A stretch of DNA of 64,000 bases, from IMG/VR virus record IMGVR_UViG_3300001765_000297, one strand, 5' to 3'. Below the pieces are notes generated by a model. The model did no database searches. It saw only the letters and a program-made list of their open reading frames with translations, and was not told where the DNA came from. Position 1 is the stretch's first letter. Every line of letters begins with the position of its first letter. The translations under genes were made by a program, and so were the position numbers. Origin of the DNA: a virus. Its lineage: Duplodnaviria > Heunggongvirae > Uroviricota > Caudoviricetes. Below are positions 2,690 to 52,751 of the stretch, one piece after another.

Positions 2690-2965
2690 ATGGACAAATT
2701 AAATTTCACCACAAAACTTTCAGGTTTAACCAAGCCAAGATTTAAACATGATTGTACTGAATGTACATATTTGGGCAGACACAATGGTAAAGACCTTTAT
2801 CATTGTACACAGGTTGGAAATCCTACAATTATAGTAAGGCATTCAAATCATCCCGCAGAATATGTTTCAGGTATGGTATTTGCTCGTAAAGCAGTTGAGG
2901 ATTGTGATTTTAACAATAGCTTTGCTCAGGCATACATGAGAGCCAAAGCATTAAATTTAATATAA
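2690..2965 (+). CDS. hypothetical protein
   Basis: ORF; likely co-transcribed with 2505..2672. Confidence 0.5.
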   Translation: MDKLNFTTKLSGLTKPRFKHDCTECTYLGRHNGKDLYHCTQVGNPTIIVRHSNHPAEYVSGMVFARKAVEDCDFNNSFAQAYMRAKALNLI

Positions 2966-2985
2966 AAATATAATTTTGGTTTATA

Positions 2986-3024
2986 GGGATGTTCCGTTTA
3001 ATCAGAACGGCATCCCTTTTTTTA
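2986..3024 (+). terminator. intrinsic terminator GGGATGTTCCG..CGGCATCCC + T7
   Basis: GC hairpin followed by TTTTTTT. Confidence 0.6.
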
Positions 3025-3034
3025 TTGCCGGAAA

Positions 3035-3064
3035 TGTAACCCTAATGTACTATTGTCCGTATAA
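3035..3064 (+). promoter_or_regulatory. phage promoter TGTAAC-N17-CGTATAA
   Basis: motif + conserved leader. Confidence 0.6.
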
Positions 3065-5036: not shown

Positions 5037-5100
5037 CACTTTGACTTTTTGTAACAACCGAATGTCCATTTTCGTATAATCATAACCAAAACAAGATAAC

Positions 5101-5469
5101 ATGAAACTCAATAACAAAACAATTCTCGTAGTAAGTGACAATGGTGAAATGGATATTTTCTTACTTGATGGTGGTGTTGCCACTATTCACCACAATGGCG
5201 AGAGATTCTTAACAACTTACATTCAGAATCGTGCAACACCTGACGACCTGAGAAATCCTGATTTTTGGACTTCTGATGTCATGAGTGATAGCAAACAGTA
5301 TATTAAAGACTGGAAACCTACACAGAAGTACATTAGTTCAAAAATGATTTTGGATGCAGCTCGTTGGCTTCTCGCAGGTTTTGGAAATGGTACTATCTTA
5401 TTCCTAAATAATTACAATGAAGTTGCTGACCTCATGGAGGAAGCTGGAATTTGGAATACTGCTGAGTAA
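5101..5469 (+). CDS. hypothetical protein
   Basis: ORF with promoter/leader. Confidence 0.5.
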   Translation: MKLNNKTILVVSDNGEMDIFLLDGGVATIHHNGERFLTTYIQNRATPDDLRNPDFWTSDVMSDSKQYIKDWKPTQKYISSKMILDAARWLLAGFGNGTILFLNNYNEVADLMEEAGIWNTAE

Positions 5470-5524: not shown

Positions 5525-5860
5525 ATGACAAAAAAAGAATGTGCAGAATTAAGCGAAAAGGCAACAGAGATTTCCGAAGGTGTTCAAAGAGCAATCAAAG
5601 AAGTCACCAAGGACAAACCACTAGTATTCTTTGGTGATGAACCTGAACAGGAAGACCTTGATGAAGCACCTTTTGGATACGCAGTTAGCCGACATGGAAA
5701 TTTCCTTGATGGCAATGTACAGAGGGTTTGCGGTGATGATGTCACACTCTTTTTAAGAGGCGATGATTGGGGCGACACAGTTGAACAAAACTTATCTGAC
5801 CTACCTTTCGAGGCACTGATTATGATTCTTGACAAACTTGAAGAAATATTGGAGGACTAA
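5525..5860 (+). CDS. hypothetical acidic protein (start moved to ATG at leader distance from promoter 5471-5499)
   Basis: -10 CGTATAA 5493-5499, 25-nt leader, ATG 5525. Confidence 0.5.
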   Translation: MTKKECAELSEKATEISEGVQRAIKEVTKDKPLVFFGDEPEQEDLDEAPFGYAVSRHGNFLDGNVQRVCGDDVTLFLRGDDWGDTVEQNLSDLPFEALIMILDKLEEILED

Positions 5861-5863
5861 ATT

Positions 5864-8814: not shown

Positions 8815-8832
8815 ACAAATCTACTAAAATTA

Positions 8833-8876
8833 AAACCCTCTTGGTGTAACCCTAGAGGGTTTTTTTACGTATAACC
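8833..8876 (+). repeat. 44-bp terminator/promoter cassette, exact duplicate of 9448..9491
   Basis: AAACCCTCTTGGTGTAACCCTAGAGGGTTTTTTTACGTATAACC identical at both loci; hairpin AAACCCTCT/AGAGGGTTT with GTAACC in loop. Confidence 0.8.
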
Positions 8877-8898
8877 TGCATAACCAATACATAAAGAC

Positions 8899-9114
8899 AT
8901 GGAAAAGAAATACTTTTTATTCGGAAGTGAAATTTGTGATGCAATGGAAGAAGATGGCATTGAAGCTGCGCTTAAAGTTGCTGAGGAAGGTGGTTTTGCA
9001 ACCTACTATTGGGATGAACACAGTACTCCAAGTGAACTACTTGCAGAGTACGATGGTTGGAACTCCTATATGGAAATCACCGAGGCAGACTACATCAGAT
9101 TTCAAAACTTATAA
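8899..9114 (+). CDS. hypothetical protein
   Basis: ORF with promoter/leader. Confidence 0.5.
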   Translation: MEKKYFLFGSEICDAMEEDGIEAALKVAEEGGFATYYWDEHSTPSELLAEYDGWNSYMEITEADYIRFQNL

Positions 9115-9201
9115 TCACCGGTAATTTAATTAAAAACCCTGGAAAACGTAACCTTTTCCGGGGTTTTTGCGTATAACCATCATAACCAATACATACACAA
9201 A

Positions 9202-9435
9202 ATGGGAATACTAAGAATTAGTGCTAAATGTTCTGACTTATGTTGGACTGAGTACACAGATGCTAAAGGTAATAAAACCGAGAGTGATGGCTATGTGCCA
9301 GAAGGAATTGGAATATCTTCTGATGGTGATTGTGGTGACTATGTTAGCCTTGATATCGACATGCAGACTGGTCAAATTCAGAATTGGAAACCTGTTAGCG
9401 ATGCTCGTGTAATCAAAGCACAGAAATCTGCATAA
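9202..9435 (+). CDS. hypothetical protein
   Basis: ORF with promoter (9151-9180) whose -35 sits in hairpin CCCTGGAAAA..TTTTCCGGGG. Confidence 0.5.
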   Translation: MGILRISAKCSDLCWTEYTDAKGNKTESDGYVPEGIGISSDGDCGDYVSLDIDMQTGQIQNWKPVSDARVIKAQKSA

Positions 9436-9447
9436 CTTTTAAAATAT

Positions 9448-9491
9448 AAACCCTCTTGGTGTAACCCTAGAGGGTTTTTTTACGTATAACC
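9448..9491 (+). repeat. 44-bp terminator/promoter cassette, exact duplicate of 8833..8876
   Basis: see 8833. Confidence 0.8.
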
Positions 9492-9513
9492 ACTATAACT
9501 AATACATAAAGAC

Positions 9514-9726
9514 ATGAATTACAAAGTAGTATTTGAAATCGAAGTGGAAGCCGAATCACCACTTGATGCAGCAAAAGAAGTTCAAGAAATGTTGAACGAG
9601 CATAATAACTGGCAGTATTACATTCAATCCTCTGAGGGGTCAGAAGATGTGTTTAGTGTTGACCTACAAGAGGAAGACGAAGATGCGGTACTTAAAGTGG
9701 ATAAATATATTCCAATGATTAAATAA
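9514..9726 (+). CDS. hypothetical acidic protein
   Basis: ORF with promoter/leader. Confidence 0.5.
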   Translation: MNYKVVFEIEVEAESPLDAAKEVQEMLNEHNNWQYYIQSSEGSEDVFSVDLQEEDEDAVLKVDKYIPMIK

Positions 9727-12107: not shown

Positions 12108-12125
12108 ACCCAACTATCAATTAAA

Positions 12126-12167
12126 ATCCTCTCAGAATGTAACTATCTGAGGGGATTTTTCGTATAA
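12126..12167 (+). promoter_or_regulatory. terminator ATCCTCTCAGA..TCTGAGGGGAT + T5 with -35 TGTAAC (12138-12143) in loop; -10 CGTATAA 12161-12167
   Basis: hairpin + motif. Confidence 0.55.
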
Positions 12168-12191
12168 CTAATGTACACTAAAACATATGAT

Positions 12192-12380
12192 ATGAAAGCA
12201 AAAAGATTTTTCGAGATTTACATTAAGTTTCTCAGTGGAGAAGGAATTGATTTTAAAGCCGATGGAATAAAGAAAGGTGAAATCTTGGAATTGATTAGCT
12301 TTGCTCAGGCACATCTGAGTACTTCGGCTTCCAATTCATTTGTATATTCTCTTGTTGCAGAAGTATTAGAAAAACCGTAA
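12192..12380 (+). CDS. hypothetical protein (start moved to ATG 24 nt after -10)
   Basis: ORF-track ATG 12171 lies 3 nt after -10; 12192 matches standard leader length. Confidence 0.45.
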   Translation: MKAKRFFEIYIKFLSGEGIDFKADGIKKGEILELISFAQAHLSTSASNSFVYSLVAEVLEKP

Positions 12381-12430
12381 CAATTAATGTCCGGCATTCG
12401 TATAATGTACATAACTAATACATAAATATT

Positions 12431-12634
12431 ATGGAAGACTTAACGTATGACAATGATATCCGAGGCGATTATGCCTTATTCATTGATGCAAAACATTTTC
12501 TTGACGAATGGGAACTAGATGATGAAACCAAAAAACTGGTAGGTTCTAAACTCACATTCTTCCGGGTTATCCAAGATGGTGAACAAGGTAATCACGGTTG
12601 GATTGAGAATGGTGAAATAATTCAATGGGGATAA
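12431..12634 (+). CDS. hypothetical protein
   Basis: ORF with promoter 12378-12410. Confidence 0.5.
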   Translation: MEDLTYDNDIRGDYALFIDAKHFLDEWELDDETKKLVGSKLTFFRVIQDGEQGNHGWIENGEIIQWG

Positions 12635-12656
12635 TACTAACATAATAATTATATCA

Positions 12657-12860
12657 ATGTTAAAACCAGTAAGAAAAAACGTAAGTGCTGAAACATTAAA
12701 GTATAATATCTTTATATGTCAAAAGGAAATTGATGATGCTCGGCAAATTGTTAAGGATGCCTATAAGGAAATCCGTAAAACTATAAAAGAGACTGAAAAA
12801 ATAATTACCAAACAACGCCATTATAAAGAATTGTTAAAGCAATGTAACAATCACCGGTGA
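12657..12860 (+). CDS. hypothetical basic protein
   Basis: ORF, no own promoter seen. Confidence 0.4.
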   Translation: MLKPVRKNVSAETLKYNIFICQKEIDDARQIVKDAYKEIRKTIKETEKIITKQRHYKELLKQCNNHR

Positions 12861-12899
12861 TTTTGCGTATAATAAGTATTAACCACAAATACATATATT

Positions 12900-15543: not shown

Positions 15544-15906
15544 ATGAAACGAATTAGCCAAGACATACTAAACGAATTAGTATATAATATCAAACGAATT
15601 AAATTTAAAAACATCATTCAAGACCTGAAACTAGAATATTGCGAAGACATTGATGGCGACTATATCTACCTGGTTTTGATTAACATAAAGAAATCCCAAA
15701 GACGTAATGGATATGGAGCTGCAGTACTCTCCGAAATTATTAAAGCTGCAGACAATCATGGTGTCAGAATTAGATTGTGGGCAACAAATGTATATGGTTC
15801 AGATTTAAAGCAGCTCTATGGTTTCTACAGGAAACATGGATTTGTTTTCGTGGATAATGATAGTGAGGGGCACATGGTTTACTATCCGGATAAAACTAAA
15901 AATTAA
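15544..15906 (+). CDS. GNAT-family N-acetyltransferase (minimal, 120 aa)
   Basis: motif A RRNGYGAAVLSEIIKAA..G, LYGFYRKHGF. Confidence 0.6.
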   Translation: MKRISQDILNELVYNIKRIKFKNIIQDLKLEYCEDIDGDYIYLVLINIKKSQRRNGYGAAVLSEIIKAADNHGVRIRLWATNVYGSDLKQLYGFYRKHGFVFVDNDSEGHMVYYPDKTKN

Positions 15907-15928
15907 ATTAAAAATACTTTGTTTATTT

Positions 15929-15958
15929 TGTAACATTTACTAGCTTTGCTTCGTATAA
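15929..15958 (+). promoter_or_regulatory. phage promoter TGTAAC-N17-CGTATAA driving ORF-free GC-rich transcript
   Basis: motif. Confidence 0.6.
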
Positions 15959-15965
15959 CATTCAT

Positions 15966-16470
15966 AAAACATCTGGGGCGAAACACAAAGTAGTGAGGTA
16001 GTCACGGAACAAGTCCTAGGTTTGTAACCTAGGCGAACTTGAAACAAACGTTCTTTAAGATATTGAAAGAGGTACGTCACAGGTGACGTTTATAATTGGC
16101 TGGTTCAATGCCCGTGTCCTCTTTCTTCGATGCAAATAGCCAACCGTTAATGGGGTCTCCGAAAGGAGCAGGAGCAAACGCAGTTATATTAGGATAGAGT
16201 AATTCCCTTTTACGAGGTGAGCCAGCTTAACGAACTGGATACAGCGTTGAAACTCTGACGGCAATGGTTGCACAGAGGCGTAAGCCTTGCGCCTACAAGG
16301 ACTGTGTAAGATTAATTTCCCCTGGGTTTCCGGAAACTCACATCGTGCAGAATCGCAAGGATGTCTGGGGGAAATTTTCCAAGCATGCTATAGGTCTCCT
16401 AGAGAGACATAAAATATTTCCTTATTGTCTAGTTTTCATTTTATTTGTATTATGTGTGTTCATAGTGATT
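15966..16470 (+). ncRNA. candidate large structured ncRNA (identity unknown)
   Basis: promoter at 5' end, terminator 16475-16507 at 3' end, locally high GC, perfect hairpins (CCTAGGTT-tgta-AACCTAGG; CGTCAC-ag-GTGACG; CTCC-GAAA-GGAG), no credible ORF. Confidence 0.4.
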
Positions 16471-16474
16471 AGTT

Positions 16475-16536
16475 CCCCCGGATTGTGGTTAGTCCGGGGG
16501 TTTTTTTGTAACCATTTCTCAAGCAGCTTCGTATAA
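16475..16536 (+). promoter_or_regulatory. terminator CCCCCGGA..TCCGGGGG + T7 followed immediately by promoter TGTAAC(16507-16512)-N17-CGTATAA(16530-16536)
   Basis: hairpin + T-tract + motif. Confidence 0.65.
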
Positions 16537-16557
16537 TACTAAACAAATTTAAATCTT

Positions 16558-16923
16558 ATGAGAGATAGCTGGTTAACTCCAAATGGAGAAGTAATTGAGG
16601 TTGGAAATTTTCAACACAATAGATATGCACAGAATCTTCTGGAAGAAGAATTGGGGTTTATGGGAATGATGGAATATATGGATAAAGAAAATATATCCTC
16701 TCCTTACGAAGTTCTACATAAACGAGGATGGGTACGTATTAAATATAATACCTCATATTTGCCTAGAATTGAAATACTTGGTGGCTGTATCGATTTAACA
16801 AAACAAGCTAAAAATACGATAGACCCGGCAATGAATGAAAAACAATTGAAGGTAGCTAAAAAGCTATGCGAAGATTGTAATACAGAATTTCATGTAGCTA
16901 TTAATGATAAGCGTTTCTGGTAA
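16558..16923 (+). CDS. hypothetical protein
   Basis: ORF with promoter. Confidence 0.5.
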   Translation: MRDSWLTPNGEVIEVGNFQHNRYAQNLLEEELGFMGMMEYMDKENISSPYEVLHKRGWVRIKYNTSYLPRIEILGGCIDLTKQAKNTIDPAMNEKQLKVAKKLCEDCNTEFHVAINDKRFW

Positions 16924-16939
16924 ATTAAATCAAATTAAT

Positions 16940-16969
16940 TGTAACCCTACCACCGGTAATTCCGTATAA
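16940..16969 (+). promoter_or_regulatory. phage promoter TGTAAC-N17-CGTATAA driving ORF-free transcript
   Basis: motif. Confidence 0.55.
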
Positions 16970-16975
16970 CATACA

Positions 16976-17075
16976 TACGAACCACCTAAACGTAACTGGA
17001 ACTTACCAGAGACCGAGTAGACTCCACCCTACGCAATATTCTGCTTATTCAGAATCTTTCTAAATAGCAATATTT
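16976..17075 (+). ncRNA. candidate small RNA, family copy 3 (hairpin CTGG-aactta-CCAG, motif GAGTAGACTCCACCCTACG 17015-17033, hairpin ATTCTG-cttatt-CAGAAT)
   Basis: promoter-driven, no ORF. Confidence 0.3.
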
Positions 17076-17104
17076 TGTAACCTTGTTTCCCGGAATTCGT
17101 ATCA
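17076..17104 (+). promoter_or_regulatory. phage promoter TGTAAC-N16-CGTATCA (tandem with 17189)
   Basis: motif. Confidence 0.45.
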
Positions 17105-17188
17105 TGGGTAAATTTAACAGGCTCGGTAATACACCTTATTATATATACAACATTCGTTTTTGGCAATTCAAAAATAGTTAAGTATATT

Positions 17189-17217
17189 TGTAACAAACCC
17201 TGAAACATTTCGTATAA
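17189..17217 (+). promoter_or_regulatory. phage promoter TGTAAC-N16-CGTATAA for rIIA
   Basis: motif. Confidence 0.55.
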
Positions 17218-17251
17218 GCATCATAATTTAACCACATAAAAATTCAAGACT

Positions 17252-27312: not shown

Positions 27313-27320
27313 AGCATTTT

Positions 27321-27515
27321 TTAATATATAGCAACAATATCGCCTCTTTTATAATCACCGGAATCATCGATATATTCCACGTCTTTTATTTCCACACATT
27401 TTTCAAATGTTGAATAAAATGGTTTATCGTCTTCCATTTCGAGATTACAAACCACCGCATTGGGATTCATTTGTTTTAAGATTTCTATCAGTTCTATTAC
27501 TGTTGTGTTTTTCAT
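27321..27515 (-). CDS. hypothetical protein
   Basis: ORF. Confidence 0.45.
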   Translation of the reverse strand: MKNTTVIELIEILKQMNPNAVVCNLEMEDDKPFYSTFEKCVEIKDVEYIDDSGDYKRGDIVAIY

Positions 27516-27634
27516 AGTTTCTTATTTTTATTACTTAAAAAATCAAAAAGGTCTTCATCAATCCATCCTAAATCCTTCAAAAATGATGAAATTACCATAA
27601 TGCAAAAAAATGCAAATAATAAACACCAAATCAT
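27512..27634 (-). CDS. small hydrophobic peptide (40 aa, single TM)
   Basis: ATGA overlap with downstream gene; MIWCLLFAFFCIMVISSFL. Confidence 0.25.
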   Translation of the reverse strand: MIWCLLFAFFCIMVISSFLKDLGWIDEDLFDFLSNKNKKL

Positions 27635-27645
27635 TACATATACTT

Positions 27646-27849
27646 TCATAGTTTTTCATTTTGTTTTGTTCGATTTTCAGCCAATTTATTTACAATATGT
27701 TTTGCTATTGGTATTTGAACGCTTCTATCATATCTTCCGGCAACATGTGCTATATAATTCAATTGTTTAATCACAAACTCAATCTCATCATTGTATTTTT
27801 TATCGGGATTGACTGAAGATTCGGGTATTTCAAATTCGTTGTAGTCCAT
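27646..27849 (-). CDS. hypothetical protein
   Basis: ORF. Confidence 0.45.
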   Translation of the reverse strand: MDYNEFEIPESSVNPDKKYNDEIEFVIKQLNYIAHVAGRYDRSVQIPIAKHIVNKLAENRTKQNEKL

Positions 27850-31718: not shown

Positions 31719-31750
31719 TATACGGAATATTTATATACCATTATACGGAA

Positions 31751-31780
31751 AGGAATTCGTAAATGTTACAAAAATTATTT
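31751..31780 (-). promoter_or_regulatory. phage promoter (minus) TTATACG-N17-GTTACA; extra orphan TTATACG copy at 31728-31734
   Basis: motif. Confidence 0.5.
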
Positions 31781-31799
31781 CTTTTATGTGGAGTATTAT

Positions 31800-32030
31800 T
31801 TACCAGCTTCTGCGGAAGTTATCTATTGCCTTAGCAATATCGCTACCATTTCCAAGTTCTTTTCCGGTTCTGTCAATATAAATGCGTCCACCGAACATAC
31901 ATTTATACTGTTCATCGAGTTTATATTCATTTACTTCGGTTTTTTTGCCCCAAAACTTTTCCCATGAAGTTGGTTCGAGTGTAACGGTATAAATGCTTCG
32001 GTCTTCAGTCTCAATTTTTGTTATTTTCAT
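31800..32030 (-). CDS. hypothetical protein
   Basis: ORF. Confidence 0.45.
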   Translation of the reverse strand: MKITKIETEDRSIYTVTLEPTSWEKFWGKKTEVNEYKLDEQYKCMFGGRIYIDRTGKELGNGSDIAKAIDNFRRSW

Positions 32031-32254
32031 TGTAGTATAGTAAATAATAATACGATAAAGCTAAATGCTAAGAAATATGTTCCCCATAGTTTTTCAACAA
32101 CACCATATATGATGTTGATTGCAAGTAATGCTAATGCACCGATTCCAAAATTTATGTTATTATCACCACAGTAATATAACAATAGCAAGATAATTCCAGA
32201 TAGTCCTGCTAAGAATGCTACAGCATCGAAGAAATCCACTTCTTTAGTTTTCAT
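32027..32254 (-). CDS. small membrane protein
   Basis: 2 hydrophobic segments. Confidence 0.45.
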   Translation of the reverse strand: MKTKEVDFFDAVAFLAGLSGIILLLLYYCGDNNINFGIGALALLAINIIYGVVEKLWGTYFLAFSFIVLLFTILQ

Positions 32255-32258
32255 ATGA

Positions 32259-52241: not shown

Positions 52242-52267
52242 AGTAAAATGTTTTATGTTACATTGGA

Positions 52268-52296
52268 TTATACGAAGACCAAATGAAAAGGTTACA
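52268..52296 (-). promoter_or_regulatory. phage promoter (minus) TTATACG-N16-GTTACA
   Basis: motif. Confidence 0.5.
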
Positions 52297-52302
52297 AAAA
52301 TC

Positions 52303-52491
52303 TTAAACTATTTTCGATTCTTCGATAATTTTTTTCACATCTTTCACTTTATTCCAGAATTCTACAGATAATTCTTCATCATCCGGAATACTACAAAGCG
52401 GTAGTGGATATTTATCCCTTACCGCTTTAAGATTAGAAAATCCGCAGTCACCATTATGTTGTTCCCATATACACTGACCACTATAACACAT
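52303..52491 (-). CDS. hypothetical protein
   Basis: ORF. Confidence 0.35.
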   Translation of the reverse strand: MCYSGQCIWEQHNGDCGFSNLKAVRDKYPLPLCSIPDDEELSVEFWNKVKDVKKIIEESKIV

Positions 52492-52715
52492 TAGTTTACA
52501 AGTCTTTTAACGTTTGTTAACTGAAGAGGACGAAGACCATTGAATTTAATGCTGTATTGAAACACTACACGATTACTCTTGAAAACCTCTGTTAAATCTT
52601 CCTCATGGTAGGCTTCCTTCCAAATTGCTGAACCATTGAGGTTCTTTGAAATTTCTTTGTCTTCGACAGGTGAATATACTTTTACATTTTCCATTGTTAT
52701 GATTTTAGATAACAA
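52491..52715 (-). CDS. hypothetical protein
   Basis: ORF. Confidence 0.4.
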   Translation of the reverse strand: MLSKIITMENVKVYSPVEDKEISKNLNGSAIWKEAYHEEDLTEVFKSNRVVFQYSIKFNGLRPLQLTNVKRLVN

Positions 52716-52751
52716 ATATAATTATAATATATTTAAATGCAAATACCTTTA

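Follow-up and report, generated by a model that had tools for sequence, protein, structure and literature searches.

A probable structured RNA family, linked to tRNA-like modules, in the rIIA region of uncultivated jumbo phages

Introduction

RNAs that are both large and highly structured, and whose function is unknown, are rare; OLE, GOLLD, ROOL and raiA each opened new biology, the latest being RNA-only nanocages. GOLLD and ROOL are phage-borne, lie near islands of transfer RNA (tRNA) genes, contain multiple pseudoknots and have no known function (PMC12286853); GOLLD also combines a conserved 3′ part with a variable 5′ part and has tRNAs in its linker (PMC12286853). Here we describe a locus in a 64,000-nucleotide (nt) stretch of DNA from a Caudoviricetes virus, IMG/VR record IMGVR_UViG_3300001765_000297, the whole of which we call the window. 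On its plus strand, at 15928-16507, lies a segment, bounded by a phage promoter and a terminator of its own, that is very probably a genuine gene for a structured non-coding RNA (ncRNA), belonging to a family not in Rfam. A sequence-only reading of the window had earlier proposed a large structured transcript there, perhaps an unclassified phage ncRNA or a ribozyme.

In architecture the RNA is closest to GOLLD and ROOL, by resemblance and not by homology. It is likewise phage-borne, pseudoknotted and found near tRNA genes and, as in GOLLD, a conserved 3′ part follows a variable 5′ part, which in some members includes tRNA-like units. It is however smaller (about 250-640 nt) and has a different core, made of helix X, stem A, hairpin B, pseudoknot K and a 3′ hairpin, Pc; the GOLLD and ROOL models of Rfam gave no match at gathering score, at E ≤10 in the window region or at E ≤1 in 10 relatives. 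The T4 species 1 and 2 RNAs (rnaC and rnaD) are also small, stable, non-coding phage RNAs that accompany tRNA genes, show tRNA-like features and have no known function, but they are only 119-139 nt long and are processed from a tRNA precursor, whereas the present RNA is served by a promoter and a terminator of its own and includes no true tRNA in the window. Homology with them was rejected after neither nhmmer, run with the core profile, nor a motif scan covering the T4 tRNA region (T4 68000-76000) gave a match; they may be regarded as functional analogues, of unknown role. Theta ribozymes, minimal relatives of the hepatitis delta virus (HDV) ribozyme, sit beside phage tRNAs (PMC10879173), and the present RNA is similarly a structured, pseudoknotted element directly 3′ of a phage tRNA or tRNA-like unit; it differs in helix topology, is several-fold larger and also occurs without a tRNA. 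With transfer-messenger RNA (tmRNA) it has in common a tRNA-like part and pseudoknots, and one relative adjoins a predicted tmRNA gene, but the 5′ and 3′ ends of this RNA form no tRNA-like domain, there is no tag frame and the 3′ end is a plain terminator.

Results and discussion

A conserved core supported by covariation

About 30 diverged homologues were found on metagenome contigs of giant phages, with nhmmer E values of 1e-12 to 1e-4; individual loci are cited below by handles such as L005. Their elements follow one order: an A-rich linker GAAAA, the 5′ strand of helix X, a variable domain, the 3′ strand of X, stem A with B and K inside it, a linker GAnAA, and Pc (Table 1). The conserved core (X, A, B, K and Pc) is compact, about 170 nt, and consists of successive helical domains with A-rich linkers between them. 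In the window, stem A has 8 base pairs (bp), 16268-16275 with 16302-16309, and encloses hairpin B, 16276-16280 with 16290-16294; in pseudoknot K the B loop CCUUG (16285-16289) is paired to CAAGG (16296-16300), which closely follows the hairpin on its 3′ side.

Table 1. Coordinates of the features of the RNA gene in the window
Feature	Position	Strand	Remarks
Phage-specific promoter	15928..15959	+	TTGTAAC box, 15-nt spacer region, CGTATAAC -10
Module M1	15975..16038	+	GGGGCGAAAC...GGAACAAGUCC, then hairpin CCUAGG-UUUGUAA-CCUAGG (16015-16033); compared with L064, L088, L059
Leader motif	16046..16070	+	AAACGUUCUUUAA..GAUAUUGAAAGA; 5′ end of the RNA in minimal relatives, forming hairpin P0
Module M3	16065..16125	+	Three-way junction closed by GAAAGAGG/CCUCUUUC; hairpin 16075-16088 and T-loop arm
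Helix X, 5′ strand	16140..16146	+	CCAACCG; pairs with 16259-16267
Variable domain V	16147..16258	+	Inside helix X; 30-148 nt in relatives
Helix X, 3′ strand	16259..16267	+	CGG-CAA-UGG; conserved CAA bulge; nearly invariant sequence
Pseudoknot core	16268..16309	+	Stem A, hairpin B and pseudoknot K
3′ hairpin Pc	16314..16376	+	Conserved internal loop; comparison of 13 homologues
AT-rich 3′ extension	16377..16474	+	98 nt, GC 0.30; GU-rich single-stranded stretch
Intrinsic terminator	16475..16507	+	CCCCCGGAUUGUGGUUAGUCCGGGGG and U7; 11-bp stem

The evidence for this structure is covariation. In a hand-made structural alignment of X, A, B and K from 19 homologues, 98.9% of cells are paired, a figure inflated by placing the B and K fields by best pairing, and 21 of the 28 pairs changed on both sides; the covariation score is 0.607 against 0.195 in shuffles, none of 500 shuffles scored as high, and slid controls gave at most 43% paired. 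Because of that inflation the pairing test was repeated on other alignments. A plain MAFFT alignment of 19 sequences, analysed with RNAalifold, recovered X, A and B unfitted, with compensatory changes in 12 of 17 pairs. Infernal-aligned hits to a model of A and B (30 distinct sequences) were 96.0% paired, with 11 of 13 pairs compensatory and a score of 0.737 versus 0.277, and in Pc, compared across 13 homologues, 17 of the 22 predicted pairs were compensatory. Slid controls over the alignments reached 48% paired at most. The stems are thus kept with compensatory changes in four alignments, and the conservation of stems on which the sequence-only reading hinged its proposal is borne out.

Helix X, although almost invariant in sequence, shows three independent compensatory changes: CCG/CGG in L006, CUG/CAG in L031, and CCA/UGG in L076 and L084. 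For K, members form a mean of 4.3 contiguous Watson-Crick bp with their own 3′ partner compared with 2.5 with the partners of other members. An Infernal model (R1) found 33 matches at E ≤0.01 in 0.83 Mb of loci, all on the strand of the neighbouring genes, and the window scored 58.4 bits (E 4e-12). The family is under purifying selection that acts at the level of base pairs.

This pattern bears on whether the locus might work as DNA, for instance as a packaging signal or as an origin of replication primed by a transcript. T4 origins use promoter-driven non-coding transcripts, and a promoter-driven non-coding transcript in the early region is what we have here. The conservation is nevertheless RNA-like, with tolerated G-U pairs, strand-specific covariation and a pseudoknot, and the conserved part has neither iterons nor AT-rich unwinding repeats, which makes a DNA-level element very unlikely.

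Coding potential was poor. Only short open reading frames (ORFs) occur within the RNA region, and the 90-amino-acid (aa) ORF at 16264..16536, which the sequence-only reading had already judged non-proteinaceous, has no PHROG match, and its span takes in conserved RNA helices as well as the terminator and the promoter that follows. Stop codons fall in all six frames across the core in the window and ten relatives, and differences in the length of the variable domain among relatives are not multiples of three. With no frame kept across these eleven sequences, a protein-coding gene or pseudogene was rejected. An open frame on the minus strand of some relatives lacks conservation and is accounted for by the pyrimidine-rich composition of that strand.

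Searches against known RNA families

Rfam 15 gave no match at gathering score anywhere in the window, and a permissive scan of 15850-16600 returned only a GcvB-like match of 28.7 bits (gathering score 42) and other terminator-driven noise. The source of the GcvB-like match is the GU-rich tail with the terminator (16340-16507); the tail resembles that of Hfq-type small RNAs. ARAGORN called 0 tRNAs and 0 tmRNAs in the window, and there was no Rfam tRNA match in the window region at E ≤10; the sequence-only reading had been unable to match tRNA, tmRNA or RNase P signatures by eye. In 19 relatives the Rfam scans yielded only tRNA matches on the 5′ units described below, whose anticodon loops are abnormal. 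Neither blastn in its 'distant' mode against 50,697 phage genomes nor a scan for the RNA pattern across 185,579 genomes of bacteria and archaea extended the family: the former gave no match and the latter 36 matches, all by chance and in coding DNA. RNase P, the signal recognition particle RNA, 6S RNA and a group I intron were by-eye leads that Rfam did not support.

Transcription unit and 3′ hairpin

The promoter of the RNA gene reads TTGTAAC-N-CGTATAAC and belongs to a motif, TTGTAACNNTT-N10-CTTCGTATAAY, of which the window has 15 copies at ≤3 mismatches against 0.00 expected (shuffles give none); the short form of the promoter family is TGTAAC-N15-TCGTATAAY. An ATG lies about 20-25 nt after 12 of the 15 copies. 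The copy at 15928 has none, and GGGGCGAAAC... comes after it instead of a start codon. Transcription would start near 15966, giving an RNA of about 540 nt, or about 410 nt if Pc ends transcription. An ORF at 16558 is served by the next promoter, at 16506-16537, whose TGTAAC box shares nucleotides with the U-tail of the terminator. GC content over 15966-16379 is 0.459 against 0.34 window-wide, and this is the GC-richest 400-nt stretch in the 64 kb (99.9th percentile). The sequence-only reading had listed a canonical phage promoter, a strong terminator, a GC-rich segment and several perfect hairpins; all were located, at the positions it had given or within 1-3 nt of them.

In relatives Pc doubles as the terminator. 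In the window it has lost its U-tract and is followed only by UUCC, so read-through is likely. The AT-rich 3′ extension beyond it occurs only in this phage, is identical in its four metagenome copies and is matched by nothing in relatives. Complementarity between the 3′ strand of Pc (16364-16373) and the 5′ strand of the last terminator (16473-16482) makes an alternative pairing possible.

The internal loop of Pc has GGAAAC on its 5′ side and AGAAUCGCAA on its 3′ side in the window; in a large subset of members these read nGAAAC and AGAAUCGAAC. Across this loop (window 16333-16338 and 16349-16358), relatives show the T-loop-like pentads UGAAA and UCGAA. Interdigitated double T-loops dock tRNA elbows, and it is speculation that the pentads could form one. 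A K-turn was considered for the same loop and rejected, the consensus not being present.

A modular 5′ periphery with tRNA-like units

Upstream of the core and inside helix X the RNA is modular, and peripheral modules are swapped even between close relatives while the core is held by compensatory substitutions. Module M1 is near-identical in the distant relative L064, partly common to L088 and L059, and absent from minimal members; its hairpin is kept by compensatory changes (CCAAGG/CCTTGG in L064, CCTCGG/CCGAGG in L059). The leader motif is common to L005, L066, L052, L064, L078, L117, L077, L063 and L071. Module M3, with its T-loop arm GGUUCAAUGCC (16102-16112), occupies the site of the relatives' tRNA-like units and was not called a tRNA by ARAGORN or Rfam; L124 has it too, with the compensatory changes CGTCAC/GTGACG to CATCAC/GTGATG and GAGG/CCTC to TAGG/CCTA. 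Domain V contains a GNRA hairpin, CUCC-GAAA-GGAG (16157-16168), the motif CAGGAGCAAAC and the hairpin GAGCCAGC-UUAACGAA-CUGG (16219-16242), sub-motifs of which are common to L124, L032, L117 and L005. Further insertions are found in the B loop of L067, L071, L063, L087, L072 and L077, whereas those of L055 and L060 occupy the linker that precedes the 3′ strand of K. The three hairpins on which the sequence-only reading had based its case, CCTAGG-TTTGTAA-CCTAGG in M1, CGTCAC-AG-GTGACG at 16075-16088 and the GNRA hairpin of domain V, are therefore real, but they lie in this variable, lineage-specific periphery, and the universally conserved core at 16140-16376 had been overlooked.

In 15 of 24 members the 5′ part includes one tRNA-like unit or two, each having a canonical T-loop. 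The sequence at which they join the core is fixed: acceptor-N-C(C/G)A-GAAAA-CCAACCG. With the tRNA model these units reach 25-48 bits; the anticodon loop measures 5, 10 or 17-18 nt, or the whole arm is missing, and no identity set is common to the acceptor stems. Minimal members (L005, L066, L072, L084) have no tRNA-like module and only a 45-nt leader hairpin, GUUCUUUAA...UUUAAGAAG. This 5′ hairpin, P0, is replaceable by tRNA-like units or, in the window, by the T-loop three-way junction. The units of L078 (~2131-2226), L117 (~1560-1660) and L112 (1437-1532) share a 17-18-nt 'anticodon loop', GAAGGGUYAACCGAAGU, and the Rfam tmRNA model gives that of L112 31 bits, which falls short of its gathering score. 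These three may constitute a distinct, non-decoding class of tRNA-like unit.

A tRNA-like unit that abuts the core through a fixed junction in so many members invites comparison with ribozymes, and the core might self-cleave or process the transcript so as to mature the 3′ end of the adjoining unit. Invariant unpaired nucleotides in a pseudoknotted core are compatible with this, and theta ribozymes show that such a genomic context exists (PMC10879173). Against it, the helix order Xa-V-Xb-Aa-Ba-Ka-Bb-Kb-Ab amounts to an H-type pseudoknot inside a stem and not to the nested P1-P2-P3-P1.1-P4 of HDV-like folds, no Rfam ribozyme family matched even permissively, minimal members have no tRNA to process and theta ribozymes are several-fold smaller. 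An HDV-like fold was accordingly rejected, on topology and on the lack of an HDV-family Rfam match, and we consider a self-cleaving or processing ribozyme unlikely. Of the two labels that the sequence-only reading had offered, unclassified phage ncRNA stands and ribozyme is an unsupported possibility.

Defective anticodon arms, together with peripheral modules that differ between close relatives, might instead be read as decay, the locus being a non-functional remnant of a tRNA island or of a protein gene. The covariation contradicts this: compensatory substitutions have kept the core intact in relatives that share as little as 45-63% identity in rIIA. Promoter and terminator are also retained everywhere, and we regard a remnant as the least probable of the explanations weighed here.

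Distribution and gene neighbourhood

The same phage, with an identical RNA region, is present in four other metagenome assemblies. Its rIIA is ≤31% identical to any cultured-phage protein and has hundreds of metagenome homologues at 50-63% identity; among RNA-bearing relatives, rIIA proteins are 45-63% identical. The label of one rIIA homologue assigns it to a Bacteroidales metagenome-assembled genome. A single-protein rIIA scan of viral contigs found nothing, and an alignment-based rIIA scan of IMG/VR found 45 loci, many of them on contigs of 300-370 kb, which places the window in a clade of uncultivated jumbo phages. Members of the RNA family come from freshwater sediment, wetland, digester and sludge metagenomes, on contigs of up to 365 kb.

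An nhmmer search with the RNA region gave two weak plus-strand matches upstream of rIIA, in L032 and L005, and in both a small GNAT-like gene closely precedes the match, as one precedes the RNA in the window (15544-15906, 120 aa, its GNAT domain weakly confirmed). A GNAT alignment then retrieved 7 viral and 41 metagenome loci, and a profile of the 3′ core located the element in about 25 distinct loci, always on the strand of the neighbouring genes. Each homologous locus has a TGTAAC...CGTATAA promoter and a U-tailed 3′ hairpin. RNA-pattern scans of viral contigs, in which about 10 matches per scan were attributed to chance, added members in other contexts. One comes after a gene for a 116-aa protein that is not a GNAT (L101) and another after a tRNA-Phe gene (L117). 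A third, on a 112-kb viral contig (L105), comes after an HNH-like gene; there the RNA (5079-5437, minus strand) has a tRNA-like unit fused to its 5′ end, and 300 nt further on ARAGORN predicts a tmRNA gene (5650-5862, minus strand) with a G3-U70 acceptor and the tag ...ASVFSEELELA, the whole forming an island of RNA genes.

The usual order in relatives is small GNAT, RNA, a 246-aa protein (p246) and then, further on, rIIA and rIIB (for example L005 3802-4542). p246 has an N-terminal TNWSxPKTN motif and belongs to PHROG 32644, of unknown function. The window has no p246 homologue; a unique 121-aa gene with a weak HNH-like PHROG match stands in its place, and elsewhere the gene downstream of the RNA is p246, a 168-aa gene or others. 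Pfam and PHROGs gave no functional hints for the 121-aa gene, p246, the 168-aa gene or the gene upstream in L101. From the syntenic GNAT-p246 loci L083 and L065 the RNA is missing; in L083 the GNAT stop codon is directly followed by a promoter and the next gene. At L065 ~2960-3050, in the position of the cassette, there are about four tandem 19-nt units TTTTTGAACCAA(A/T)(A/T)GAACCA. Since contexts vary and some syntenic loci are without the RNA, the element is an optional, self-contained cassette, so far seen only in phage contigs.

The recurrent GNAT neighbour raises the idea that the RNA is its partner, an antitoxin or regulator whose tRNA-like parts act as a decoy, on the model of the GNAT toxins that acetylate aminoacyl-tRNA. 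The RNA does follow the GNAT gene directly in the window and at most homologous loci, the GNAT domain is weakly confirmed and the RNA carries tRNA-like modules. The association is biased, however, by most loci having been collected through the GNAT search itself. Loci with the RNA and no GNAT (L101, L105), and loci with a GNAT and no RNA (L083, L065), also rule out an obligate link. Known tRNA-acetylating GNAT toxins are larger than the 120 aa of the window protein. The RNA has no tandem repeats of the type III antitoxin kind in 15900-16560, and its neighbour is a GNAT and not ToxN-like. We consider such a partnership quite unlikely, somewhat more so than a ribozyme.

The downstream side of the locus suggests another possibility, a cis-regulatory leader (riboswitch or attenuator) in which the pseudoknot core would be the sensor and Pc a regulated terminator setting read-through into the next gene. 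An aptamer-like pseudoknot directly followed by a terminator hairpin fits this arrangement, as do the missing U-tract of Pc in the window, past which transcription probably continues, the complementarity of Pc to the final terminator, and the frequency of p246 as the next gene in relatives. Yet at nearly every locus a full promoter separates the RNA terminator from the next gene (in the window 16506-16537, before the ORF at 16558), the class of the downstream gene is inconsistent, the GNAT-p246 arrangement of L083 exists without the RNA, and the core and Pc showed no alternative pairing that is conserved. We therefore judge a cis-acting leader improbable, to about the same degree as a ribozyme.

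Proposed role

The explanation that we find best overall, with a probability of roughly 0.55, is a stand-alone structured-RNA gene that acts in trans and is linked to tRNA. We infer action in trans from the intervening promoter, the varying next gene, the presence or absence of the cassette, and the promoter type, which is that of small genes of the rIIA/rIIB region. The link to the tRNA-handling machinery is drawn from independent fusions of tRNA look-alikes at one junction and from members that lie beside tRNA or tmRNA genes.

How such an RNA might work is considerably more tentative. From the promoter type used by small genes around rIIA, the RNA would be made as a stable folded scaffold whose invariant X/A/K core and Pc loop could offer a binding or assembly surface. 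The tRNA-like modules would tie its role to the tRNA-handling machinery: processing of the RNase P/Z type at the units could release the core or, alternatively, the modules could be mimics or decoys. We hold this scaffold mechanism to be doubtful as a specific proposal.

Several observations weigh against a tRNA-linked, trans-acting RNA, in addition to the inflated pairing of the hand-made alignment given above. The folding energy of the RNA region is unremarkable (minimum free energy z-score of -1.04); this measure being uninformative, the case for structure was built on covariation. The loops connecting K are very short, so that K may not form within one molecule and could be intra- or intermolecular. 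Transcription of the gene is itself deduced from motifs. The tRNA-like units could simply be co-transcribed or decaying tRNA genes, and tRNA mimicry cannot be the core function because minimal members are without a tRNA-like module. Finally, no partner protein can be named, the GNAT and p246 neighbours giving no functional hint.

It is also possible, if somewhat doubtful, that the locus is the founding example of a new, modular class of 'ornate' phage RNA whose core has a biochemical activity of its own. The invariant parts of that core would be helix X and its CAA bulge, the pseudoknot enclosed by stem A, and the internal loop of Pc with its pair of T-loop-like pentads. In such a class, insertion points at fixed positions would receive tRNA-like cargo specific to each lineage, and candidate activities include docking the elbows of tRNAs or tRNA-like units, building RNA-only particles through intermolecular K, and serving as a tRNA-mimic decoy against host defences that target tRNA.

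To the large structured RNAs of unknown function the locus adds a family with strong covariation support, a compact core and defined insertion points for tRNA-like modules, and its natural minimal versions of about 250-300 nt suit structure determination. The family occurs in a large clade of uncultivated jumbo phages and, since it sits in a promoter-dense region of small genes beside rIIA and rIIB, the RNA is a candidate for host takeover or anti-defence. The locus also offers a concrete case in which to study why phage ncRNAs and tRNAs are so frequently found in physical linkage.

Other features of the window

Copies of the promoter include those at 2450, 5049, 11275, 11537, 12137, 12375, 13957 and 16506 and, on the minus strand, 29206, 31740, 39246, 45700 and 56807. 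Most are followed by a short A/C-rich leader (CATAACCAAAAC...) and then ATG, without a Shine-Dalgarno sequence of the AGGAG type, which suggests a phage-directed promoter specificity together with initiation that makes little use of Shine-Dalgarno sequences. After the copy at 16939-16970 come about 280 nt of AT-rich sequence without a long ORF before rIIA (17252), and relatives also have AT-rich gaps of 300-500 nt without long ORFs before rIIA; the region 16924-17251 may represent an extended leader or another non-coding unit. Other stretches of at least 500 nt without an ORF of at least 80 aa lie at 8815-9623, 12108-12899, 27313-27848, 31719-32258 and 52242-52751. Their GC content is ordinary (0.29-0.37), and they probably hold small genes.

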